Shown here one piece after another: positions 1-62,893 of a stretch of 64,000 nucleotides of DNA. Every line of letters begins with the position of its first letter. The stretch's first letter is position 1. A program made the translations under genes and the position numbers. The notes under the pieces are model-generated. The model was not told the origin of the DNA. It saw only the letters and a list, made by a program, of their open reading frames with translations, and ran no database searches. Source of the stretch: a virus (taxonomy: Duplodnaviria; Heunggongvirae; Uroviricota; Caudoviricetes); the IMG/VR virus record IMGVR_UViG_3300005260_000047; one strand, given 5' to 3'.

Positions 1-1252
1 CTGCTTTTGCTTGCAAAAGAGCGTTGACGCGCTCGAAATCGTATGCCTTTGCCACGCCGGATGAGTTGTCGATACCGGCTGCGTTGTCTTCCTTGGTGCG
101 CTCGCCAGCCAGGCCGACCGTGTGGTAAATCTCGTTGATGATCTTGGAAATCACCGCCAGGATCACATGCGCCTGCTTCGGATCCGGCGACAGATAAAAC
201 GGTTGCGCGCCGCCCTCGCCGTCATACAGGAAGGTGCGATTGGTTCCCATTTCGACCAGCTTGGTGTAATTGTCCTCGCCAGGCAGCACGTTCTGTGCCG
301 GCATGGCCAGTTGGGAAAAGGTTTGATCCTGGATAATAGCGTCCAGGTTGGACAGGTAGTTCGCGCAGGCGCGATCCAGGTAAGCGATATCGTCAATCAG
401 CGAAGGCGATGTGAACTCCTCATCCGAAATGATGTTGTCATGCAAAATGACCGGCACTTCGCCCAGGTTATGTTCGCCGTGATCCACGATCACAACCACC
501 GACTTTCCGCCTTTGGTCTTTTGCTCTTCCAGCAGCGACCATTCCGTCTTTGTCCACAGTCGATAGCGCGGACGCACCTCTCCGGAAGAGCTTAACGGAT
601 CTTCGTCGTCGCGCTTGCTCTCTAAGACCAGGATCCAGTTCAGTTCGCCATTGTCATCCTTGGAGTAGTCGAGCAACTGCTTGGGGCCGACGATATAGGC
701 ATAAGTCTTGACGCCAAGCTTTCTTTCGTCCGCCCTGGAAATCGCGCTGCCGGAAGCGGCCGTGTTATCGACCACAATGCCGATACGACCGAGCGTAGAC
801 GCTTTTTTCGATGCCTGACGCATGAAGTCACGGATCTCAAGACCGTAGCGGGTGGAACTCTCCCAGAAGCGTTTAACGCTGTCAGGGGCGTCAACTTCAT
901 TGCGCGTGATGTTTTGCTTGAACAGATATTTGTTGACCAGATCAACCACTTCGCGGGTATGGTTAAAGCGATAGCAGCGCTTGATGCGATCGGCATATTC
1001 GCCTTCGCCTTCCTTGATGTAACGGAAAATGTTGCCGTCGTTGAACCAGTCGCGACCGCCCTCGTAGGTATCCTCCAGAAAATCCCAATGCCCCAGGTTT
1101 TCCTGGTATTCGGGGTGGCGACGCTCAATCAAATACCGCAGCTTCTTTTGCTCGGCATTCATGACTGGCGCGGTTGCCGCGCTAACCGAATTCGGATCGA
1201 CAATACCGACATTGCCAGTCTGCGGAAGGGGGCGGGTCTGTGTCATTTTCAT
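1..1252 (-). CDS. Structural protein, probably portal (partial; the 3' end runs off the window start)
   Basis: Stop-free minus-strand frame from ATG at 1252 to position 1, spot-translated by hand at three places (MKMTQTRPLPQTGNVGIVDP..., ...DDNGELNWILVLESKRDDE..., ...LAVISKIINEIYHTVGLAGE). It sits immediately downstream of terS-terL in the same orientation. The plus-strand ORFs in the track here (122..595, 914..1267, 1161..2429) look non-coding. Confidence 0.45.
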   Translation of the reverse strand, partial: MKMTQTRPLPQTGNVGIVDPNSVSAATAPVMNAEQKKLRYLIERRHPEYQENLGHWDFLEDTYEGGRDWFNDGNIFRYIKEGEGEYADRIKRCYRFNHTREVVDLVNKYLFKQNITRNEVDAPDSVKRFWESSTRYGLEIRDFMRQASKKASTLGRIGIVVDNTAASGSAISRADERKLGVKTYAYIVGPKQLLDYSKDDNGELNWILVLESKRDDEDPLSSSGEVRPRYRLWTKTEWSLLEEQKTKGGKSVVVIVDHGEHNLGEVPVILHDNIISDEEFTSPSLIDDIAYLDRACANYLSNLDAIIQDQTFSQLAMPAQNVLPGEDNYTKLVEMGTNRTFLYDGEGGAQPFYLSPDPKQAHVILAVISKIINEIYHTVGLAGERTKEDNAAGIDNSSGVAKAYDFERVNALLQAKA

Positions 1253-1292
1253 AGCTTTGGATACTAACTCAGTGGTGACTTATATGTCAAGC

Positions 1293-2537
1293 CTATCGAG
1301 ACAGGCCGCCAATCTCTACTTTGCGCACCGGATATTCCAGCTCGATGCAATAGCCGCCGGCGTCGGCGGAGTGTTCCACGCCGGCCGCCTTGTCTACATC
1401 GCGCGTGCCAGGCTTGTAAATGGTTTGTTCCAGCGCGTTGATGAAATGCTTGCAGCGCGCATCGACCTTCAACCGTACCGTGCCGTCGGCCGCCTTCAGC
1501 ATCCTGTTTACGGCATTGACGCGGTCAGCCACGAACGGATGCTTGCGGCGGTATTTGATGCGCTTGAAGCCTTTTTCTCGCAGGATGTCCAGGTCGGTCT
1601 CGCCGCGGGCGTGCTGGCGCTGGCCGCCGGCGGGGTCAGGGTAGACCACGATCTGCACCTGCTGACGCCAGTAGCGCTTCTCCAGCTCTTCGCAGACCTC
1701 TTCCGTGTTGGATCCGAACAGTACGATCTCATCCACCGCCCACAACTCACCGTTTTTCTGCGGCTGAAAAATCACCGCAGACATCGGGTCGATGTTGAAG
1801 TCCATACCAACCCAGATCGGCAGCTTCGGATTGAAGGCGTATTGGTCAACATGCTCGTTGCGGTCGAACGGATAGTAGACGCGGCCGGACATGGTTTCGA
1901 AGGATGCTTCAAACTCCTGCTTGAAGGATTTCTCGTCCATGTCGGCGCGCGCCGCCTCGATCTCGGACACAGGGATGAACGGCGACGTGATGGTCGGGAA
2001 TTGCCAGGACTCCCACAGTCCGCGCGTGACGTTCTTCGGATCCTGCCCCTTCTGGTAAATCGTGTAGAGGTAGTTGTAAGCCTTGGGCGTGCCGATGAAG
2101 ATTGCGTGGCCGCGGCGGTCAGCCAGCGTCGGGCGCAGGACTTTTGTCCAGGTGTCCTCGTCAATATCCTGGAATTCGTCCAGCACCAGAAAGTCCACGC
2201 CCACGCCGCGCAGCGAATCGCCCTTGTCGGCGCCCTTCAGTTCGATGCGGGTGCCGTTGACCAGCGTGATCGCCATATTGGTCTCGTTGACCTTGCGAAT
2301 CCAGCGCTTCGGGATAGCCTCCAGCAGATCGTTCCACATGATCTGCTTGGCCATCTTGTAGGTCGGCGCCACGTACCAGATTTTCGACTTCCGTTTTTTG
2401 GCGCGGGTAATGATCAGCACGCGGGATAATGCCGTCTTACCCCACCGGCGGCCGGCGACGACGACGCGAAAGCGCGCCGACGACTTGTAGACCGTCATCT
2501 GCTTGGGATGCAGCCGCAACGTGCTTCGCATCGCCAT
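1293..2537 (-). CDS. terL: Terminase large subunit (ATPase + nuclease)
   Basis: Walker A 'VVAGRRWGKTAL' and Walker B 'FLVLDEFQDI'. The C-terminal RNaseH-like nuclease region carries acidic residues. ATG at 2537, 1 nt after the terS stop. The track ORF 1293..2633 carries a non-coding-looking 32-aa N-terminal extension. Confidence 0.9.
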   Translation of the reverse strand: MAMRSTLRLHPKQMTVYKSSARFRVVVAGRRWGKTALSRVLIITRAKKRKSKIWYVAPTYKMAKQIMWNDLLEAIPKRWIRKVNETNMAITLVNGTRIELKGADKGDSLRGVGVDFLVLDEFQDIDEDTWTKVLRPTLADRRGHAIFIGTPKAYNYLYTIYQKGQDPKNVTRGLWESWQFPTITSPFIPVSEIEAARADMDEKSFKQEFEASFETMSGRVYYPFDRNEHVDQYAFNPKLPIWVGMDFNIDPMSAVIFQPQKNGELWAVDEIVLFGSNTEEVCEELEKRYWRQQVQIVVYPDPAGGQRQHARGETDLDILREKGFKRIKYRRKHPFVADRVNAVNRMLKAADGTVRLKVDARCKHFINALEQTIYKPGTRDVDKAAGVEHSADAGGYCIELEYPVRKVEIGGLSR

Positions 2538-3270: not shown

Positions 3271-3630
3271 TCAAGTCACCGATGACTTATCTTCGGTAAT
3301 GACGAAATGCAGCGCTACGGCGGCGGCCGCGGCTTGCGTCTTTTGCGGCGTCGTTACCGCCACCATGCCGGCATGGTCGAAAATGCAAACCCACTTTCGC
3401 CCCGTAGTCGGCTTGATGTAGGCTTGCACGCCGCGCAACTCCAGGCATTCGAGCGCATGATCGGCCCACGCGCAGAAATCCGGAACCGAGGACAGCTCAA
3501 GGGCGGCAGCAATCGCCTGGTTGAGTTTGGGGCCGGCAGCAATCTCGCTCCCGACCTCCAGCACTTCCAGTTCCGCGCCCTTCTGGCTCCCGACGCTTGG
3601 GTGTTCCAACTGTTTTTCTAAAATATTCAT
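3271..3630 (-). CDS. Hypothetical protein
   Basis: 119-aa ORF that is first after the late-promoter-like region. No recognisable motifs. Confidence 0.5.
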   Translation of the reverse strand: MNILEKQLEHPSVGSQKGAELEVLEVGSEIAAGPKLNQAIAAALELSSVPDFCAWADHALECLELRGVQAYIKPTTGRKWVCIFDHAGMVAVTTPQKTQAAAAAVALHFVITEDKSSVT

Positions 3631-25585: not shown

Positions 25586-26266
25586 TCATGACTCATCCTT
25601 TCCGCTGTCTTGTGCGCTTGGCTGGCTGGCGGCATAGAGGGGCTCAATCCACGCATCACGCCACCCATGAAAATCTATCTGCTCGGCCATCCAACTTTCT
25701 GCTGATTTCAAGTCAAAGAAACCTGCGGGCAGCGCATAATCTGGCTGTATTGGCTGGCCTTTTGCGACACGATGCACAATCCAATGCTTCGCTACAGGCT
25801 CAGGGGAGGGCTGCGCTTTTACCTTTTCAAATAAATCTTTATAGGTGTTATATAGGTTAAGCGCAGTCCTCATTTCTTTTGCTGAGAAGGTCAGCGACTT
25901 TTCATCTTCGGTATTTCTCAATGTACTTAGAATTTCTTTAACACTCCGATCAGCTTGCTGCGCTCCCTGTGCCGGATCGGCTGGCGCGTCAAGTTGAGCG
26001 CACCTCCATCCGGTCAAAACAGCGTAATCCCATAAAGCCCCGATGCTCGGGTAGGGCATATCCTCCGGGAACTTCGGTAAGTTTGGAATGGAGATGCTGC
26101 GCATCGTCGCGGCTGGCGCATCCAGTTGAGTGCATAGGGCTGCTATTGCATCCTTAGCCTTTGCGACATGGCATTCCGGCGCATCGTTGTCTGGTGTGTC
26201 GCCGTCGCAAAAGGGTTTCAGGGCTTCTATCGCTTGCTCCATCGCCTTGCGCTGTGCGTCAGTCAT
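25586..26266 (-). CDS. Hypothetical protein
   Basis: 226 aa with a 4-nt overlap to the RF-like gene. Confidence 0.5.
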
Positions 26267-27015
26267 GCGAACCTCGGTTTAGTTGGTTGATCGTCTTTAA
26301 GCGGAGGAATCTTGGCCTGCAGCTTTTCGATATGCCTTGCCTGCTGCAACGCAAGTTCTTCCACGCTGTCTACGGCGTAAAAGTCCATGAGCTGCTTTAA
26401 CTCTGGCGCTACCGGCTCGGCTGGCTTGGATGCTTGGGCAAGCAGAGCGCGTACATCGCGGACGAATTCGAGCAAACGAACACCGTCGGGGAAGTGCCAC
26501 CCCGTGGCTGTCCATACCGTGTGGCTATGCGCTAACTCATATATTTCCCCGTCGCTGATCTGCGGGGAGGGCGCTACCAGCTCGGCTGTCTGTACCAGCT
26601 CGCTGGCATGGCTGGCGGCTACGTACTTGGCGTACAGTTTTGCCACATCCCGCAAAGCTACGGTATCGTAATCGGGGTGAATATCGTCCCCCTCTTTCCA
26701 GTATCCAAACGATGCCGTACTGATTGCAGCTAGCCGCATTACTTCCCGCTCATCCATCACTTCTGGCGCTGCGCTGGTGGCTTCCGGCAGGTCCACCTGT
26801 GCCGGTTCGACTGGCAAATTCGCCAGAATGCACCGCAGCTTCTCCAGCGCCACAGCCTTATTCTTGTGCTGACTGCGATCACCTGAGTATTCAACCGCAA
26901 TGCCTGACGGCAGATGCGTCAGGCGAACACCAGCATCATGCTTGGCAATAAAGCCACCTCCACCACCAGGAATGAAGGTGTCAATGCGCAAATCTTTCGG
27001 ATCGATTTCTACCAT
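26263..27015 (-). CDS. Class-I release-factor-like (GGQ-domain) protein with GGQ replaced by GGG, plus a 180-aa C-terminal extension of unknown function
   Basis: The N-terminus '[63 protein letters not shown]' aligns residue by residue with RF1/RF2 domain 3 ('...[49 protein letters not shown]...'). The sequence was re-translated by hand from the DNA. Confidence 0.7.
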
Positions 27016-33707: not shown

Positions 33708-34040
33708 TTACGCATTGACGCCAGGCTTATTACTGGCAATCAGAGTGCAGCCATAGTTCTGTCCGCGCTTGACGAACTGGAAGGTGCCGCTGATCTTGCC
33801 GCCAACCATATGCGGGATCATTTCTTCCAGCTCTTTCAGAAAAACCGTTACCTGCTTGCCGTCAGCGCGCGTGAAGTGGAAGTAAGCGGCAGACTGGCCG
33901 CGGGAATAGCTGTCGTATGTCAGCGTGTCCTCAAACAGCTCGTTCGGTCGCCAGTTAATGCCACCCCATCCATCCGGATAGTGTTTTTGATTGCCTTGTT
34001 CATCGAAAGGAATCTCGTAATTGCCGACTGTCTTTGCCAT
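33708..34040 (-). CDS. Hypothetical protein
   Basis: 110 aa. Confidence 0.45.
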   Translation of the reverse strand: MAKTVGNYEIPFDEQGNQKHYPDGWGGINWRPNELFEDTLTYDSYSRGQSAAYFHFTRADGKQVTVFLKELEEMIPHMVGGKISGTFQFVKRGQNYGCTLIASNKPGVNA

Positions 34041-34052
34041 GTCAGTTGCCTT

Positions 34053-34481
34053 TCAAATCTTTTTCATTTGTCGAAGGCGTTGATCGACATCCCTGTCGAT
34101 ACGCCGCTGTTCTTCAGATACCGGCTCATGCCAGCCTCGCTCATTTCTCGTCTGCTTTGGTCGCGCCCGATACCAGTCAACAGCGAGTTGCGCCTGCTCT
34201 CGTTTCAGGATCAAATCTGGAAGGATTGCCTCAAGAAGCGCTGCCGCCGACTCGCCCTGGATAAGCCAGTTGAATTTCTCTCTCGCGCCGCGTGATGGAT
34301 ATTTACTCACCTTGCCGCCGAACCGCCCCTGCATACTGTTCAAAAGGCTTTCCGACTCAAGGCTTTTGTTTTGGACGACTTGAACGACTAGCGTGTGGGA
34401 GGACTTCCGCCCATTCTCATAGACGGAAATACAGCCTTCACCATCCACAAAACCTGCGATATAAGCGAGTGGCGGACACAC
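34053..34481 (-). CDS. LAGLIDADG-family homing endonuclease (single-motif, free-standing)
   Basis: 'LAYIAGFVDGEGC' is the LAGLIDADG motif. It lies 2 nt downstream of rtcB. Confidence 0.7.
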   Translation of the reverse strand: MCPPLAYIAGFVDGEGCISVYENGRKSSHTLVVQVVQNKSLESESLLNSMQGRFGGKVSKYPSRGAREKFNWLIQGESAAALLEAILPDLILKREQAQLAVDWYRARPKQTRNERGWHEPVSEEQRRIDRDVDQRLRQMKKI

Positions 34482-34482
34482 G

Positions 34483-35697
34483 TTAGTTTCCTTTTACGCA
34501 CAAAACCTGCTTCAAAACATGCAGGACTTCCACAAGGTCTTGTTGATTAGCCATTACTTCGTCAATGTTTTTATAAGCCGAAGGAATCTCGTCCAGCACC
34601 GCGTCGTCCTTGCGGCACTCCACGCCTTTGGTTTGCTCGACCAGATCGCGGATCGTGAATTTCTTTCTGGCTGCCGAACGGCTCATGGCGCGGCCGGCAC
34701 CGTGGCTGCATGAGCAATAAGCTTCATGATTGCCTTTGCCGCGCACGATGTAGCTGCGCTGACCCATCGAGCCAGGAATGATGCCGAGATCGCCTTCGCG
34801 GGCGCGAATAGCGCCTTTTCGCGTGACCCACAGATTGCGGCCGAAGTGGTTTTCCTTCTCCACATAGTTGTGGTGACAGTTGATCGCCTCCTGTGTGATG
34901 GTGAATTCCTTCGGGATGTGCCGGCGCAGCGCTGCGATCACCACATCCATCATCACGCGGCGGTTTTCCAGCGCGTAGTCTTGCGCCCACTTGACCGCCT
35001 CGACGTAGTCGTTGAAGTCGTCAGTGTCTTCCGGCAGATAGGCCAGGTCGCCATCTGGCAGGTGGATGAAATACTGCTCCATGCGGCGCTTAGCCTTTTC
35101 GATGAAATAGCTGCCGATCATATTACCGATGCCGCGGGAGCCAGAATGCAGCATGATCCACACATCCTGGTTCTCATCCAGGCAGAGTTCGATGAAGTGA
35201 TTGCCAGAGCCGAGCGAGCCGAGTTGCGTTCTCGCCTTGTCGTTACGACCGATAAGAGCCGGATGCTTCTGCTCAATACGATGAAGCGCGCACCACATAT
35301 CCACTTGTGCCGGCGAATTTAACGGACGCGCAGGGTCGTTTGCTCCACCCGCACCAAGCGGCACATCACGCTCGATCTGACCGCGGATCGCCGCCAGGGA
35401 GTCCGGCAGGTCGGTTGCCTTCAGCGACAATCGCACCGCATTCATGCCGCAACCGATGTCAACACCAACGGCAGCAGGAATGATCGCTTTATCGGTCGCA
35501 ATCACGCTGCCAATAGTGCTGCCCTTGCCCGCATGCACATCGGGCATCAAGGCAACGCCGTTACCCGCAATGAAGGGCAGGCGCGCGAGATTCTTCGCTT
35601 GTTGCAGCGCTTCATCCTCGATCTGCAACGCGCCGTCTTCATTCTCGCCAACCCACGCCTTGATAGGGCGCGAACCTTCTTCCTTGATTACTTTCAT
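34483..35697 (-). CDS. rtcB: RtcB RNA 3'-phosphate ligase
   Basis: 'MPDVHAGKGSTIGSV', 'GVDIGCGM', 'HSGSRGIGN' and the C-terminal 'CSHGAGRAMSR' (catalytic His). Confidence 0.9.
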   Translation of the reverse strand: MKVIKEEGSRPIKAWVGENEDGALQIEDEALQQAKNLARLPFIAGNGVALMPDVHAGKGSTIGSVIATDKAIIPAAVGVDIGCGMNAVRLSLKATDLPDSLAAIRGQIERDVPLGAGGANDPARPLNSPAQVDMWCALHRIEQKHPALIGRNDKARTQLGSLGSGNHFIELCLDENQDVWIMLHSGSRGIGNMIGSYFIEKAKRRMEQYFIHLPDGDLAYLPEDTDDFNDYVEAVKWAQDYALENRRVMMDVVIAALRRHIPKEFTITQEAINCHHNYVEKENHFGRNLWVTRKGAIRAREGDLGIIPGSMGQRSYIVRGKGNHEAYCSCSHGAGRAMSRSAARKKFTIRDLVEQTKGVECRKDDAVLDEIPSAYKNIDEVMANQQDLVEVLHVLKQVLCVKGN

Positions 35698-35706
35698 GTT
35701 TTCTCC

Positions 35707-36171
35707 TTATTTGCCTGCCGCTTTAATTAATTCCGCCTTCAGAGCTGCGCGCGCCGCCGTACCGAAATCAGGCTGCTTAATGAGGACTTTGGCAACGTGC
35801 ATCATCCCTTTCAAGAAAGGATTGCGCTTTTGCTTTGACTTGCGACCGACCGGCTTGGATGGTGCCGCCGTCACGGTTTTGGCATAGACTGCCGCGCGCA
35901 TGATCAATTGCTGCTTGCCAGATGCGCCGCGCCTGGTGTCGCCCAAACGAACGATAAGTCCGGCGTCTTCCAGCTCTGAAAAGCGCCCCGTCACCCTTCC
36001 GGTATTGCTTTCGTCCGACGACAGCCCCTTGCGGAAAGTGGCAATTACGTCATCCTGGATGCAGCCGTCTTCGCCATAACTCTCTATGATTTCAAGCACC
36101 CGCTCACGCAAGGATGCGATTGGCGATGTATGAAACGCCGCTACCGATGTGCTTTTAACCCTCACTGTCAC
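35707..36171 (-). CDS. Winged-helix-like protein
   Basis: 'LRERVLEIIESYGEDGCIQDDVIATF...GLIVRLGDTRRG'. Confidence 0.4.
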   Translation of the reverse strand: MTVRVKSTSVAAFHTSPIASLRERVLEIIESYGEDGCIQDDVIATFRKGLSSDESNTGRVTGRFSELEDAGLIVRLGDTRRGASGKQQLIMRAAVYAKTVTAAPSKPVGRKSKQKRNPFLKGMMHVAKVLIKQPDFGTAARAALKAELIKAAGK

Positions 36172-39619: not shown

Positions 39620-40177
39620 TTAAGAGGTTTGTCGATACTGTGGTTTTTGTGAAACCCGCCAGGATTTGCCATAAACCCTGTCGAGCGCCTTTGGGATTGT
39701 GTTGCGGCTTACCCCAAGCCTTTCTGCTATTGAAATCAACTTTTCGCCAGAGAAAACCGCGCTATACGCCTGCTTAACCTGATCTTCCGAAAGCTTCGCT
39801 GATCCATTAGCAAAGCCTTTCGAGTCGATTAAGCCAGTCGCAATGCCGTGCTGGATGTTCTCTAATTCAGTTACCCATTCAAGATTGCTTACGGCGTTAT
39901 TGTGCTTATTTCCGTCTTTATGATTTACCCCCGGCTTATTGTTTGGATTTGGGATGAACGCTTCTGCAACGAGCCTGTGAACACGATGCGTTCTAACCTC
40001 CCCGCCCTTCGCAAGACGAATGGTCAAGTATCCAGTGCAGTGTTCCGACAGCTTTCGTTCCATACCTGGCACGAATTGTCTCCCCAGCCGCGTGTGAGGC
40101 ACCCATCTTTCTAATGAAAAGATGCGTCCATCTTCCGTAACTGCGTAAAGCCCTTCGTAGCCAGGTATTGCTTTCAT
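39620..40177 (-). CDS. HNH homing endonuclease (NUMOD4-like N-terminus, HNH_3, C-terminal HTH)
   Basis: 'GYEGLYAVTEDGRIFS', 'VNHKDGNKHNNAVSNLEWVT' and 'ISIAERLGVSRNTIPKAL'. Confidence 0.8.
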   Translation of the reverse strand: MKAIPGYEGLYAVTEDGRIFSLERWVPHTRLGRQFVPGMERKLSEHCTGYLTIRLAKGGEVRTHRVHRLVAEAFIPNPNNKPGVNHKDGNKHNNAVSNLEWVTELENIQHGIATGLIDSKGFANGSAKLSEDQVKQAYSAVFSGEKLISIAERLGVSRNTIPKALDRVYGKSWRVSQKPQYRQTS

Positions 40178-53495: not shown

Positions 53496-54065
53496 CTATA
53501 CATTTGTCCAAGACCTTCCGGTCTTGATATCAGAAATAGTCGTCTGATCAACGCCAAACTCTTTTGCCAAACGCGATACATCACCCCACCTTGCGGCTTG
53601 CAATCGCCTTTTTATTTCAATCACTTGTGACTTATTCAACGTGGCGGCGGGATTTCGCTCACCTTGAAAGTCGGTTCCATGCTTTTTCTTGTCCGCATGG
53701 TTCGCAGTGACCGTCTTCCACTCAAGATTCGTTAGCGCGTTATTTGAAGGATCGCCATCGTTGTGTGCGCCATGAACATTGCGCGGATCCCCTGGACGCG
53801 ACCCAACAAATGTCTCCAAAACTAAGACGTGAACGGACTCATATTTAACTTCACCGCCCTTCCTCAAACCCACCCGCAAGTAGCCACTAGGTTCTCGCTT
53901 TAGCTTCATCAATGTTGGAGTAGAAGCAAGACTATGGCTATTTCCGGCTCGTCTCGACAGCCAACTTCTGACATTCCCGCTGTCAGAAACGTCGTAAAGT
54001 CCTTCATACCCACGAATCTGCGCCCACTGCTCCATCACTCGATCCTTCTCAAATAAATCACACAC
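53496..54065 (-). CDS. HNH homing endonuclease (NUMOD4-like, HNH, HTH)
   Basis: 'GYEGLYDVSDSGNVRS', 'HGAHNDGDPSNNALTNLEW' and a C-terminal 'FGVDQTTISDI'. Confidence 0.8.
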   Translation of the reverse strand: MCDLFEKDRVMEQWAQIRGYEGLYDVSDSGNVRSWLSRRAGNSHSLASTPTLMKLKREPSGYLRVGLRKGGEVKYESVHVLVLETFVGSRPGDPRNVHGAHNDGDPSNNALTNLEWKTVTANHADKKKHGTDFQGERNPAATLNKSQVIEIKRRLQAARWGDVSRLAKEFGVDQTTISDIKTGRSWTNV

Positions 54066-58551: not shown

Positions 58552-59811
58552 TTATGCAAGCATATCGGCCACCTTTTCAAATATCGCCTTCAAGACTTCC
58601 GCCTTGCTAGAATCGAAAATGATCTGTTGCGCATTGATGCCGCAGACGATTGAGGCATCCAGCGCCGGATCGTAAATCACCCTGCCCGCCAGCTCCGCGG
58701 TGCCACCCTTGACGCCAGGCACGAAGCGCTTGATGGCGGCACTCCCCAACGCTACGATGATCGGCGGCTTGATCAGCGCAATCTCATGGTCAAGAAACGC
58801 CTTGCAGCCGTTGATCTGCCCGTTGGAAAGGAACTTGTCGTTTTTCTTCGCCTTGACCAGCGTCGTGTAATAGCCATCGGCCGGCGACAGCCCGACATCC
58901 GTAATGGCGGCTTTGATGAAATCAGCCGCATCCCCTTCAAGCAGCTTGTCTGCTTTTTCTTCCTGCCAGGATGGGCAGTCTGATACCACCATGAACTTGA
59001 TGTTAGCCTTCATGCGCACGGCCGGATGAGGCTGACCAGCCAAATCGCAACCTTCACACTTGCGGTAATCCTGGATCAAATGAATGATCTTGGTGCGCAA
59101 GAACGGATCCTTCACATCGGTCGAGCGATCCGCCTTGACGCTATCGATAATCAGTCCTGGCATCAGGTCGAGCTGATCCTTGCGGCGATCCAGATGCCGT
59201 GCAGGTTTGCTTCCCGCCTCAATATCGGCAAGCGCACCAACCAGCCGCAGATTCTCGACCACCTTGGCGTTGACCTTCGAGCCTGGCTGTGAAGCTGCCA
59301 GCATGAATTCTTCAGCCGTATCGAAGCGGCCCTTGCATGGCGAATCTTCATCCAATCCATAGACTGCTTCGATCGTGCCGTCGCGCTTCTTTTTCTGCTT
59401 GACGACTTTCCAGCCCCGATTGCGCTCCCGCAATTCAACAATGCGCTTTGCCGTGTTTTCAGAAATGCCCTTGACGCTTGAGAAGGGCGCCAAAAGATGC
59501 TTGTCGTCGGGAATAGTGAAGCGATGTGTGGAGCGGTTGACATCGGGCGGCAAGACCTCGATGCCATACTCGCGCGCATCCTTGACCAGCCCTTCGAGCT
59601 TGTCGTCGCCTACGATCGACAGGCAAGCGGCAAAGTATTCAGCCGGATAGCGCACCCGCAGCCACATTGTCCAATAACTCACAATCGAATATTCAATGGC
59701 GTGTGATCTGTTGAATCCATATCCGGCGAACGCGGCGATCTTGTCGAACAGACTATCTGCCGCCGACTCACTCATGCCATTTTTAAGCGGCTTGACACTC
59801 TTGATTTTCAT
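58552..59811 (-). CDS. DNA polymerase III alpha (DnaE-type) C-terminal fragment, plus a possible UDG-like C-terminal domain
   Basis: '[43 protein letters not shown]' matches DnaE '[35 protein letters not shown]'. This continues where the 60539..62893 ORF loses homology. Confidence 0.7.
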   Translation of the reverse strand: [419 protein letters not shown]

Positions 59812-60496
59812 TATTCATCCTCACTAAATTGTGAATCTGCGTCCGCGACACATCAAACATTTCCGCCAACTTTTGAATGGTGGCACCCTCCGCCCGCTTT
59901 TTCTTTACCTCCAGCTTTTCGCTGTCAGTCAAAAAACGCACGACACGTTTCGCCTCGGTCAGCGGGCCGCCAGCATTGGGCCACTTCTTTCCTGCGCAGA
60001 TATGCCACACGTAGACATCAGGCAAGTTGTAGTCTTTGCCGATCGAAGCAAGCGACTCGTCATTCGCACGCCGGCACCTGATTGCCACAACATCCTTCTC
60101 CTTCAACTTGTGCCAGGAAATCAGCTCGCCTGCTGGTTGCGTTCCGTGCATCAGCTTGTCTTCGCAGTTCTCTGTTGGCGTGCCGTAGCGCAGGTTAGCC
60201 AGTCTATTGTTGGACGGGGTGTTATCACCGTGAAGAACGTAATACCCTTCAGGGCAAGGCCCGACGAACGCCTCCATCACAAGCCGGTGTCCGAAATCAC
60301 AATGCCTAACTCCCGCCACCGAGAACTCAAACCAGTGATAACCCCAAGGGTGGCGACGCGACTTGAGAATTCGCCCGCGCGCCAGCCGCTTATGGCCGTT
60401 CTTGCAGTTAACCATCGAATCAACCCTCCTAACGCGGCCTTGATCCGATACCTCGATCACATTTCCAAACCTGGCGAGTGGCTTCCAGACTTCCAT
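59783..60496 (-). CDS. HNH homing endonuclease inserted within the DnaE gene
   Basis: 'GYYVLHGDNTPSNNRLANLRYGTPTENCEDK' is the HNH motif. C-terminal HTH 'TIQKLAEMFDVSRTQIHNLV'. Confidence 0.8.
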   Translation of the reverse strand: MEVWKPLARFGNVIEVSDQGRVRRVDSMVNCKNGHKRLARGRILKSRRHPWGYHWFEFSVAGVRHCDFGHRLVMEAFVGPCPEGYYVLHGDNTPSNNRLANLRYGTPTENCEDKLMHGTQPAGELISWHKLKEKDVVAIRCRRANDESLASIGKDYNLPDVYVWHICAGKKWPNAGGPLTEAKRVVRFLTDSEKLEVKKKRAEGATIQKLAEMFDVSRTQIHNLVRMNNENQECQAA

Positions 60497-60670
60497 GTTG
60501 ATTACCTTCGATGAATGGGCAAGAAAGACACGTTACACTCACCACTGACTGATGTCAACACCGTCTTTGATGGCGGTTTCAACCGTCCTTTTAATGCCAT
60601 CGACGCACATGAACTTGGCGCTGCGATGCACGCGCTTGATCGTGCCATCCTCCAGCTCGACCTCGATCTC
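59785..60670 (-). mobile_element. ~0.9-kb intervening sequence splitting dnaE (group I intron with an HNH ORF, or a free-standing HEG insertion)
   Basis: DnaE homology stops ~43 codons before the stop of ORF 60539..62893 and resumes at residue ~10 of ORF 58552..59811. The HNH ORF fills the gap. Confidence 0.5.
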
Positions 60671-62893
60671 GCCCGCCGCCGCGCCTTCGACGAACTTCTT
60701 GCGCTGCTCCTCCATCTCCGCAGGCAGCTTCTTGCCCATGATCTTGCGCAACTTGTCGGCGTCCGCCATCGAATACCCCGCCAGGTCACGCGCCACCTGC
60801 ATCACCTGCTCCTGATAGACAATCACGCCCGACGTGGACTTGAGCGCCGCTTCCATGTTCGGATGGTCGTAGTAGGGAGCTTTTGCCCCCTGCTTGATTT
60901 GCACGAAGTCTTCCATCAGGCCCGAATCCATCGGGCCAGGACGGTAGAGCGCGGTCGCCGCGGTAATATCTTCGAACGTCAGCCGGCCGCCCTGCGCCAA
61001 GTCGCGCAGCAGCTTTTTCATGCCAGGTGATTCGAACTGAAACACGCCGGTCGTGTCGCCACGACCGAAACTATCCATGATGTCCGGCTCTTCCAACGGC
61101 AGGCTGATGTACGAAATATTCCTGCCATGCCGATCCTTGATGTATTGACGGGCGATCTCCAGCACATCGAGTGTGGACAGCCCCAAAATATCCATCTTGA
61201 CCAAGCCCCAATCTTCCACTACGCGCTTATCCCAATTGACTACAGGAATGCCTTCCTCGTCGCGGGTCTCCAGCACGGCGCGGTTGATCAGCGGCTCGCC
61301 ACCGACCACCACACCGGCCGCATGCTTGGCAAACGCCCGCATGACGCCTTCGAGCTTGAGCGCGTGATTCCAGATTTCAGCATGCTCGTCGCGGAATTTC
61401 TCCAGCTCCGGCACGACTTTCGCCGATTCAGTCAGCGTGTAGGACTGACCATGCTCTTTCGGCACCAGCTTGGTTGCCGACAGCGTCAAGTTATCCAGCT
61501 CGTAGACGCGGCCCGCATCGCGCAGCGCGGAGGCTGACGCCAGCGTCGAGAAGTTCGAAATGCCCGCCACACGATCGGCGCCGTGTCGATCACGCAGGTA
61601 GTCAATCACCTCATGGCGGCGCGTGGACATGAAGTCCAGGTCGGCGTCGGGCAAGTCAAGGCGCTCCGGATTGATGAAACGCTCAAACAGCAAATCAAAG
61701 CGCAGCGGATCGACATCAGTAATGCCAACCAAGTAAGCGACCAGCGAGCCACCGACCGAACCACGGCCAGGGCCGACGATGATGCCGTTCTTCTTGGCCC
61801 ACATGACCAGATCCTCGACCAGCAGAAAGTAGCCGGCAAAGCCCATCTTTTTCAAGACCGCCAGCTCGTATTTCAGACGCTCCTGGTATTTGGGAATATC
61901 GGCAGCGTCAGGCTTGTAACCCAATATCGGCTGCGTAAAGCGGCGCTTCCAACCCTCGATGCATTTCTTGCCGAGCGCTTCGAATTCATTGGTCGCCATC
62001 TGCGGCAGCGAGACCGGCAGTTTCTTGAATTCATAGGTGCAGGCGGCGGCCAGCGTGTCGATGTTTTCGAGACCCTGCTTCCACAATGCTGCTTCATTAA
62101 CGCCATTCCATTTAACCTGACGCTTGTGCGCTTCGACCATTTTCTTGCCAAGATTGAGCGCTGGCTTGAAGCCAAAGTCGCGCACATGCTGGACGGGCCG
62201 GTAGCGCACCGACATTTTCGTGTTGGTCGTGATGGCATTCAATACCGACAGCGTGCCGGCATCAGCATCGTCCTGATACATGAATGGGTACGTGACCAGT
62301 GTCGGCAGACTACAATCCTTCGCTACCTTCAACGCCTTTGCGTTTAACGTATCAAAGAGTGGCGTATTAATTGGCGTCAGTTCCACATACAAGCGCTCAA
62401 AATTGCAGCGCAGCGCCGCGATCCGGTCGGGGTATTGCGGATGATGAAACAGATTGAAGAAGTCGCCAGTCGTGACCGCGACGCCCTCCAGCTCCAGCAC
62501 GTCCTTCCAGCCGACGCGAGAATGATAGTAGAAGTATTCCTTGCTATTGGCTTTGGACAAGAGCTTCAACAGGGAATTGATGCCGCGCTCGTCGGTGGCG
62601 TAGACCTTGATCATCACCAGCGGGTTCGGCTCTTCCTTGATGCCGGAAGATTTGGAAGGCTTGCGGTAGGTCGGATCATCCACCACGCGCAGCCGGCAGC
62701 CGATGATCGGCTTGATGCCGGCTTTCTTGCAGCGGTTGGAAAAATCAACCATATTGTGAATGGACATATCATCCACCAGCGCGACCGACTGATAGCTGTG
62801 CTTTTTCGCCTGCTCGATGATGTGATCCACCTGAAGCAGAGAATTGCCGACCGAGAAGTCAGAGCGCACCGATAAGGCGTGATTGATGTTCAT
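60539..62893 (-). CDS. dnaE: DNA polymerase III alpha (DnaE-type) N-terminal part (PHP, palm, thumb, fingers)
   Basis: PHP N-terminus; 'GPGRGSVGGSLVAYLVGIT', 'DPLRFDLLFERFINPER...PDADLDF' (catalytic Asp pair), 'KMDILGLSTL', 'GDTTGVFQFES', 'ALYRPGPM' and 'VYQEQVMQVA'. Confidence 0.9.
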   Translation of the reverse strand: MNINHALSVRSDFSVGNSLLQVDHIIEQAKKHSYQSVALVDDMSIHNMVDFSNRCKKAGIKPIIGCRLRVVDDPTYRKPSKSSGIKEEPNPLVMIKVYATDERGINSLLKLLSKANSKEYFYYHSRVGWKDVLELEGVAVTTGDFFNLFHHPQYPDRIAALRCNFERLYVELTPINTPLFDTLNAKALKVAKDCSLPTLVTYPFMYQDDADAGTLSVLNAITTNTKMSVRYRPVQHVRDFGFKPALNLGKKMVEAHKRQVKWNGVNEAALWKQGLENIDTLAAACTYEFKKLPVSLPQMATNEFEALGKKCIEGWKRRFTQPILGYKPDAADIPKYQERLKYELAVLKKMGFAGYFLLVEDLVMWAKKNGIIVGPGRGSVGGSLVAYLVGITDVDPLRFDLLFERFINPERLDLPDADLDFMSTRRHEVIDYLRDRHGADRVAGISNFSTLASASALRDAGRVYELDNLTLSATKLVPKEHGQSYTLTESAKVVPELEKFRDEHAEIWNHALKLEGVMRAFAKHAAGVVVGGEPLINRAVLETRDEEGIPVVNWDKRVVEDWGLVKMDILGLSTLDVLEIARQYIKDRHGRNISYISLPLEEPDIMDSFGRGDTTGVFQFESPGMKKLLRDLAQGGRLTFEDITAATALYRPGPMDSGLMEDFVQIKQGAKAPYYDHPNMEAALKSTSGVIVYQEQVMQVARDLAGYSMADADKLRKIMGKKLPAEMEEQRKKFVEGAAAGEIEVELEDGTIKRVHRSAKFMCVDGIKRTVETAIKDGVDISQW

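Follow-up and report, generated by a model that had tools for sequence, protein, structure and literature searches.

A phage rtcB gene and the endonuclease gene behind it

The locus described here lies in a 64,000-nucleotide stretch of viral DNA (the window; Caudoviricetes record IMGVR_UViG_3300005260_000047), which sits on a 260-kb soil-metagenome contig, ENA ERZ923681 k127_11291. Its subject is a pair of adjacent genes, an rtcB gene for an RNA ligase and a small gene for a LAGLIDADG homing endonuclease, together with the sequence that joins them (Table 1). The window is phage DNA, with genes for terminase, a DnaE-type polymerase, ThyX, ribonucleotide reductase and proteins of the RecA/UvsX-like and SbcCD-like kinds. 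Every gene between 31 and 39 kb lies on the minus strand.

The rtcB open reading frame (ORF) encodes an RtcB protein of full length. It matches Pfam family PF01139 over model positions 1-426 of 426, at 431.9 bits against a cut-off of 27, and also matches phrog_1075 (E 8e-153). In phmmer alignments to the Thermus and Pyrococcus RtcB structures (1uc2/4dwq), every active-site motif is intact. Residues D95, C98, N202/H203, H234, H329 and H404 of the Pyrococcus horikoshii enzyme correspond to D80, C83, N166/H167, H184, H275/H276 and H332 of the window protein. In the P. horikoshii enzyme they comprise the Asp, Cys and His ligands of the metal and the histidine to which GMP becomes covalently attached. 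The first-pass annotation, made from the DNA letters alone, had described a full-length RtcB with its catalytic motifs, and this description holds. Judged by its sequence, the protein looks like an active, catalytically intact 3'-phosphate/5'-OH RNA ligase.

For a large phage, an RtcB is nothing unusual. Homologues are encoded by 703 of 50,697 phage records, the nearest being that of Bordetella phage PHB04 (79% identical). The RtcB ligases of PHB04, of jumbo phages and of mycobacteriophages belong to the same family and are likewise full-length with intact active-site motifs; unlike the window gene, none of the annotated phage rtcB genes that we examined adjoins this endonuclease. Narrower assignments were rejected. 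The PrfH-paired RtcB2 family (TIGR03073, release_rtcB) gave 148.4 bits against a cut-off of 271.8, and the Escherichia coli RtcB equivalog NF007153 gave 183 bits against 407. A prfH gene adjoining rtcB was also dismissed: the sole gene with an RF-1 domain is about 7.5 kb away, and its GGQ motif reads GGG. Nor is there an rtcBA/RtcR operon: across roughly window positions 2,000-65,000 of the parent contig, no called gene has an RtcA or RtcR domain. Among curated NCBIfam models the best is an intein-containing RtcB family, matched in its extein parts; the window gene has no intein. That match is interrupted after GVDIG, just before the catalytic Cys83, which indicates that in the relatives an intein interrupts the protein at the active-site Cys. 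The rtcB match in Caulobacter phage RBC57 falls into three pieces under two coding sequences. From the intein-containing relatives and the RBC57 pieces, rtcB seems to have been invaded repeatedly by different mobile elements.

The endonuclease ORF scores 32.1 bits against LAGLIDADG_1 (PF00961; gathering score 23.1) and matches phrog_5046 (E 1e-23). Its motif, read as IAGFVDGEG, puts E15 at the catalytic position, and G14, E15 and G16 are invariant in its homologues. A phmmer search of PDB sequences returned I-CvuI (E 1.8e-4), and core residues 5-108 align with I-CvuI, I-MsoI and I-CreI. E15, Q37 and K93 fall opposite D20, Q47 and K98, catalytic and active-site positions of I-CreI; the segment VVQVVQNK corresponds to the stretch around Gln47, and LILKRE to that around Lys98. 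An AlphaFold2 model, with a predicted local distance difference test score of 82.9, has the order alpha-beta-beta-alpha-beta-beta-alpha (helices 3-13, 41-54 and 76-89; strands 17-22, 29-38, 57-61 and 69-75). At least the top 40 Foldseek matches to this model are I-CvuI, I-CreI and I-MsoI, at probability 1.0 and a template modelling score of about 0.5 over 108 residues.

These three enzymes are homodimeric, intron-encoded LAGLIDADG endonucleases of algal chloroplast ribosomal DNA. The window protein shares with them a single LAGLIDADG motif, the same core fold and the conserved catalytic and active-site positions, at a length of 142 amino acids against 152-170. It differs from them in being only 21-29% identical, in having a distinct C-terminal helix (residues 123-141) and in not being intron-encoded. 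It is thus an I-CreI-type, single-motif endonuclease, presumably a homodimer.

The two genes are separated by a single nucleotide, a C at 34482, between the rtcB TAA stop (34483..34485) and the endonuclease GTG start (34479..34481). The first-pass annotation had placed the endonuclease gene 2 nt downstream of rtcB; the adjacency is right and the distance is one nucleotide too long. The sequence AAGGA, within the K-G codons of rtcB and 7 nt upstream of the GTG, is the likely ribosome-binding site of the endonuclease gene. A promoter and terminator scan near the junction gave nothing above chance. RtcB is colinear with its homologues to the C-terminus and ends in the conserved LKQVLCVKGN followed by the stop codon. 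An Rfam scan of 31-39 kb, including group I and group II introns, returned no match at E<=1. Since there is no Rfam match, RtcB is colinear and the endonuclease has its own start codon after the rtcB stop, the endonuclease gene is free-standing, neither intron- nor intein-borne. This agrees with the earlier description of a free-standing, single-motif LAGLIDADG gene outside any host gene.

Table 1. Features of the rtcB-endonuclease locus (window coordinates, or RtcB residues for the protein motifs; L201 and L108 are relatives described in the text)
Feature	Position	Strand	Basis or remark
Upstream gene p154; weak winged-helix-like match, phrog_1123	35707..36171	-	context, outside the cassette
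rtcB coding sequence, 404 codons and TAA stop	34483..35697	-	PF01139 over full model, E 4e-129
Native part of rtcB, codons 1-372	34582..35697	-	L201 nucleotide identity 0.84-0.92 in conserved blocks
Recoded, putatively imported rtcB 3' end, codons 373-404 and stop; contiguous with endonuclease gene	34483..34581	-	change point against L201
RtcB motif GVDIGCG	D80, C83		alignment to P. horikoshii RtcB
RtcB motif GSGNHF	N166, H167		alignment to P. horikoshii RtcB
RtcB motif MLHSGSRG	H184		alignment to P. horikoshii RtcB
RtcB motif NCHHNY	H275, H276		alignment to P. horikoshii RtcB
RtcB motif CSHGAGR	H332		alignment to P. horikoshii RtcB
LAGLIDADG homing endonuclease gene, free-standing, 142 amino acids, GTG start, TGA stop	34053..34481	-	
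LAGLIDADG motif LAYIAGFVDGEGC, catalytic acidic residue E15	34431..34469	-	direct read
Upstream copy of direct repeat, AAGGAAACTAACGTG: functional rtcB end and endonuclease start codon	34479..34493	-	repeat search
Downstream copy of direct repeat, AAGGCAACTGACATG: remnant and start codon of next gene	34038..34052	-	repeat search, junction alignment
Remnant of native rtcB end, AAA GGC AAC TGA (K G N stop)	34042..34053	-	part of 15-nt imperfect direct repeat
Downstream gene p110, phrog_22450 (E 3e-30)	33708..34040	-	
Junction, window functional rtcB end and endonuclease start: AAGGAAACTAAC GTG			
Junction, window downstream of endonuclease and p110 start: AAGGCAACTGAC ATG			
Junction, L201 native: AAA GGG AAC TGA C ATG			
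Junction, L108 native: GGT AAC TGA C ATG			

A recoded rtcB 3' end and a remnant of the native one

A protein search with RtcB supplied the best comparator, L201, which is the closest syntenic relative (p237, p212 and p67 are 83, 80 and 80% identical, and RtcB 86%). L201 has no endonuclease gene. The gene is also absent at L202, L115, L030, L040, PHB04 and about 80 other rtcB loci; at L115, rtcB (74% identical) and the p110 homologue that follows it share the overlap TGATG, and no endonuclease gene intervenes. A homologue of the endonuclease, P0003 (65% identical), is encoded on contig L120 directly after an rtcB gene (77% identical) that has different genes on both sides. The endonuclease gene is therefore polymorphic for presence and absence at one site, and occupies the same site in an unrelated context (L120/L121). 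More distant LAGLIDADG homologues (25-47% identical) were collected from 23 viral, 46 metagenome and 31 genome loci, and none of them adjoins rtcB, so the link to rtcB appears specific to the close subfamily. A Megablast search of the locus against the 50,697 phage records returned no match, meaning that it has no close cultured relative, and the rtcB neighbours in PHB04 and FLC9 are unrelated to those in the window.

The first-pass annotation had asked whether related phages without the LAGLIDADG gene have the same rtcB 3' end. They do not. Over codons 357-372 the window gene and L201 differ at only three places. The maximum-likelihood change point is codon 373, and beyond it most third positions differ. 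Third-position identity falls from 0.75 (codons 167-372) to 0.34 after codon 373 (permutation p=0.0006), while amino-acid identity in the recoded tail stays at 0.88. The tail protein sequence is nearly invariant over 86 loci. Composition changes as well: GC content at third codon positions (GC3) goes from 0.70 in codons 1-370 to 0.41 in the last 34 codons, 371-404 (change-point permutation p=0.035). When 75 distinct rtcB alleles are ranked by the drop in GC3 from body to tail, the window allele is 1st and that of L120 is 4th. In nucleotide sequence the tail is closest to low-GC3 alleles, L073, L033 and L045 among them, which sets it apart from the body. GC3 of the endonuclease ORF is 0.55, against 0.60-0.74 in the neighbouring genes.

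Downstream of the endonuclease gene lies a short second copy of the rtcB end. Together with the functional end it forms a 15-nt imperfect direct repeat with 12/15 matches, at a spacing of exactly 441 nt; the chance of a 12/15 match at a fixed register is about 1e-5. The sequence AAC TGA C ATG is identical in the downstream copy, in L201 and in L108, a close syntenic relative that has lost rtcB, whereas the functional end in the window reads AAC TAA C GTG. The endonuclease-less relatives thus match the remnant and not the end that is in use. When the window was searched by tblastn for a duplicate of the rtcB tail, none came up, the remnant being too short.

L120 has the same layout. A second rtcB tail copy of 66 nt, divergent and non-functional, lies downstream of its endonuclease gene; it encodes NQRDLVEVVHVLKQVLCVKGA and a stop codon, which overlaps the start of the next gene. 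In a search for tail duplicates among 87 rtcB loci, this copy was present in L120/L121 only.

The conserved junction itself (34038..34047 in the window, 7203..7215 in L201 and 3439..3448 in L108) is followed by a different gene in each case, p110 in the window, a 170-aa DUF1653-like gene in L201 and a 78-aa ORF in L108. Module exchange seems to break exactly at the start codon. A microhomology deletion between the 'MAN' codons of rtcB and the 'MAK' start of p110 was considered, and the sequence does not support it.

At the L108 locus the ribosome-binding site of rtcB is kept, together with a mini-ORF, MEVIKEEGN and a stop, in which codons 1-8 are joined to the last two codons (3417..3446). The deletion is joined at an AAGG microhomology, and two unrelated ORFs (78 and 106 aa) follow before p110. 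Because L108 shares AACTGACATG with the window, an L108 ancestor that carried the endonuclease was considered. It was rejected because L201 shows AAC TGA C ATG, which is the native junction between the rtcB stop and the next gene. L108 is a deletion of rtcB and is uninformative on whether the endonuclease was ever present there.

Probable homing of the endonuclease gene and competing explanations

We consider it likely that a free-standing homing endonuclease gene of the I-CreI type entered this locus as a cassette made up of a replacement rtcB 3' end (codons 373-404) and the endonuclease ORF. The recoded tail, the remnant of the native end and the same layout in L120 all point to this pair as the mobile unit. 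The predicted inserted segment is 34054..34581 (528 nt), comprising the replacement rtcB end, one nucleotide and the endonuclease ORF, with 12 nt of the native end behind it. The first-pass annotation had proposed that the endonuclease homed next to a conserved gene. Its absence from the closest relatives fits that proposal; a simple landing beside rtcB does not fit, as the last 32 codons of rtcB have been replaced.

If the endonuclease came with a replacement rtcB end, its target would lie inside rtcB. The enzyme would cut endonuclease-less rtcB alleles in the highly conserved 3' coding region, with a predicted target in codons ~373-384. This bracket for the break follows from the start of conversion at codon 373 in the window and the left edge of the L120 remnant at codon 384. 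The break would be repaired from an endonuclease-carrying genome, copying the cassette. On the left, crossover would take place within rtcB homology (codon 372/373 in the window). On the right, the rejoining point would fall in the rtcB end of the recipient or past it, so that part of this end stays behind the endonuclease gene. The incoming recoded tail would keep RtcB intact and presumably protect the new allele against the enzyme. Translational coupling to rtcB is probable for the endonuclease, through the GTG placed 1 nt past the stop and the K-G codons AAAGGA as ribosome-binding site.

The recoded tail and the endonuclease could instead be unrelated, mosaic recombination having swapped the rtcB 3' end and the endonuclease gene having been inserted separately in the intergenic gap. 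The region is indeed strongly mosaic: 82 rtcB loci have, between them, 72 different genes as downstream neighbours. In addition, p154 was inserted between p67 and rtcB as an indel of its own, specific to this lineage; L201 and L108 lack it, and their p67 homologue stands immediately before rtcB (L201) or what is left of it (L108). Two independent events, however, would not account for a recoded tract that stops exactly at the start of the endonuclease ORF and has the same lower GC3. Nor would they account for a duplicated rtcB end at both endonuclease-carrying loci and at no other of the 87, or for the place of both endonuclease-carrying alleles in the top 4 of 75 for the GC3 drop. We think this explanation very unlikely.

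The linkage might also be kept by function, if the LAGLIDADG protein had been co-opted as an RtcB partner, as an RNA-binding or maturase-like cofactor or as a regulator. Some LAGLIDADG proteins are RNA maturases (PDB 2ab5, an 'mRNA maturase', is among the weak phmmer matches), and the tight linkage, the probable translational coupling and the purifying selection in two divergent contexts would all suit such a partnership. More than 80 related rtcB genes, those of the closest relatives included, nevertheless work without the endonuclease. Distant homologues of the endonuclease never stand beside rtcB, and gene-end remnants are a signature of recombinational insertion. Co-option is barely credible on this evidence.

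A third alternative accepts the arrival by homing and makes it old, the LAGLIDADG ORF being a relic that is now inactive or a domesticated passenger. Against the L120 homologue, the ratio of nonsynonymous to synonymous substitution rates (dN/dS) is 0.17, which indicates that the protein is maintained by purifying selection and argues that the gene is not a mere relic. The ORF has no frameshifts, and its motif, catalytic Glu and Gln/Lys equivalents are intact. In composition, the imported tail still stands out. On the other side, the two rtcB-linked copies are old, at 65% amino-acid identity and a synonymous divergence (dS) of about 1.7. There are extremely few close homologues, and P0002, which is among them, has substitutions in the motif. 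Homing endonuclease genes typically decay once fixed (PMC13619312). We judge the relic unlikely.

Several results weigh against the cassette model as set out above. The target site was not located: in a 22-bp pseudo-palindrome scan of the rtcB tail, the best site had 6/9 symmetric pairs, the level of shuffled sequence. No donor genome for the recoded tail was found. Only three homologues of the endonuclease that are at least 65% identical occur in 5.8 billion proteins. P0002, available as a protein only and 90% identical, has LAYIEGFVVGEGC where the window has LAYIAGFVDGEGC, with changes of A to E and D to V in the motif, and is longer by 4 residues at the N-terminus. These changes show that decay occurs in this endonuclease lineage, P0002 perhaps being a copy in decay, and the window enzyme could be inactive or retargeted. 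Finally, the window remnant is only 12 nt long and is weak when taken alone. It gains weight because it matches the L201 and L108 junctions and has a parallel in L120.

In architecture the locus comes closest to the mobile ORFs (mORFs) of fungal mitochondria, which bring with them the C-terminus of a foreign gene. They are known from Allomyces macrogynus atp6 and from Glomus atp6, atp9, cox2 and nad3 (Beaudet et al. 2013, PMC3630166, citing Paquin et al. 1994). Like the window locus, an mORF locus consists of a host-gene core, an inserted in-frame C-terminal portion, an endonuclease ORF (LAGLIDADG or GIY-YIG in mORFs) and a native C-terminal remnant. In both, the inserted end diverges mainly at synonymous sites and the remnant resembles close relatives. 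The window differs in its bacteriophage host and in rtcB, which is new as a target gene. Its endonuclease ORF is not fused in frame and has its own start codon 1 nt past the stop, and little of the native end remains, 12 nt in the window and 66 nt in L120.

A second comparison is with the Seg, Mob and F-CphI enzymes, free-standing endonucleases found in T-even and other phages. They spread by 'intronless homing' with co-conversion of flanking markers, and share with the window an intergenic gene next to a conserved gene, presence/absence polymorphism and a converted flanking tract. Endonuclease genes beside essential genes are a general pattern in phages (PMC10448857). The window enzyme departs from the Seg, Mob and F-CphI group in being LAGLIDADG rather than GIY-YIG, HNH or EndoVII, and in the duplicated gene end that marks its insertion. 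The same phage survey lists only 20 LAGLIDADG genes, at least 8 of them intein-borne (PMC10448857).

The locus is no new kind of system; what is new is the host gene rtcB and the phage setting of a gene-end-swap design. We suggest tentatively, at slightly less than even confidence, that it represents a gene-end-swap homing cassette in a phage, in which the endonuclease travels with a cleavage-resistant rtcB 3' end and the leftover native end can serve as the right-hand homology arm. If so, the cassette could home into any rtcB, whatever gene follows. The mORF mechanism of fungal mitochondria would thereby gain its first counterpart in a phage, and the enzyme would recognise a sequence in rtcB codons ~373-384, a specificity new among LAGLIDADG enzymes. 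The C-terminal swap known from mitochondria would then operate in phages too, where LAGLIDADG enzymes are uncommon and mostly intein-borne. The comparison with L201 offers a view, at single-codon resolution, of how a selfish endonuclease would rewrite the end of a conserved accessory gene. For tool development, the locus provides a candidate small (142-aa) I-CreI-type enzyme with a predicted target narrowed to about 35 bp.

The role of RtcB and other features of the window

We lean slightly towards a counter-defence or repair role for RtcB, in which the ligase would reseal phage or host RNAs cut by metal-independent ribonucleases, with transfer RNA (tRNA) as the most probable substrate. The first-pass annotation had likewise suggested counter-defence repair of nuclease-cut tRNA or rRNA, which is a plausible reading. 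Resealing by phage RtcB of tRNA cut by such ribonucleases has already been proposed on comparative grounds (PMC7824862). No experimental paper on a phage RtcB was found in the literature searched. By analogy, phage RtcB might be a functional counterpart of T4 Pnkp and Rnl1, which repair PrrC-cut tRNA. Unlike that pair, RtcB joins a 3'-phosphate or 2',3'-cyclic phosphate to a 5'-OH directly, with GTP and without an end-healing step. The loss of rtcB in L108 shows that the gene is dispensable in at least one close relative, and fits an accessory gene of host-dependent value. Counting against a defence-related role, tRNA genes, Pnkp, Rnl, RtcA, archease and any further RNA-repair gene are all missing from the window, and nothing there ties RtcB to defence. 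The locus neither strengthens nor weakens the repair or counter-defence hypothesis for phage RtcB.

RtcB may alternatively act in the phage's own RNA processing, on intron-containing or split tRNA, on other transcripts or on damage by phage ribonucleases, with no host defence nuclease involved. In archaea and metazoa, tRNA splicing is completed by RtcB as the ligase (PMC3400036), and the window gene sits amid replication and nucleotide-metabolism genes with no recognisable anti-defence genes. A tRNA scan of the 64-kb window, however, found no tRNA genes, and the Rfam scan of 31-39 kb no introns. Reduction of rtcB to the 9-codon mini-ORF in L108 is what would be expected of a host-dependent accessory gene, and the published comparative view prefers repair of nuclease-cut tRNA (PMC7824862). 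A role confined to the phage's own RNA is in our view rather unlikely, a minority possibility that keeps some weight.

Homing-type endonuclease elements are plentiful in this phage genome. Three HNH/NUMOD4 endonuclease genes lie in the window, beside dnaE, the recA-like gene and thyX. Two of them, NUMOD4/HNH_3 genes at 39620..40177 and 53496..54065 (both minus strand), are those beside thyX and the RecA/UvsX-like gene, and the one at thyX is absent from L201. The third (HNH_3/NUMOD4; 59783..60496) lies between the two ORFs that make up a DnaE-type polymerase (58552..62893, minus strand). One of these ORFs encodes a 784-aa part with PHP, pol3-alpha and finger domains, and the other a 419-aa part with HHH_6 and UDG domains. 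Because phrog_4335, which the 419-aa part matches, is a stand-alone family, the division into two ORFs may date far back in this group of phages.

The sole RF-1-domain gene, mentioned above, encodes a 250-aa protein (26263..27015, minus strand). Its N-terminal RF-1 (GGQ) domain is matched by Pfam at E 2e-14, and the motif reads PGGGGGF, without the Gln. The first ~70-90 residues alone match phage records as an RF-1 (GGQ) domain, and residues 88-131 match a hypothetical protein of three Ralstonia phage records. The 180-aa C-terminal part has no family match. From its sequence, this may be a catalytically dead release-factor-like protein.

Endonuclease content varies widely across the related phages. 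At L202, positions 1..1771 hold a ribonucleotide reductase with a LAGLIDADG_3 intein, followed by a NUMOD4/HNH gene.

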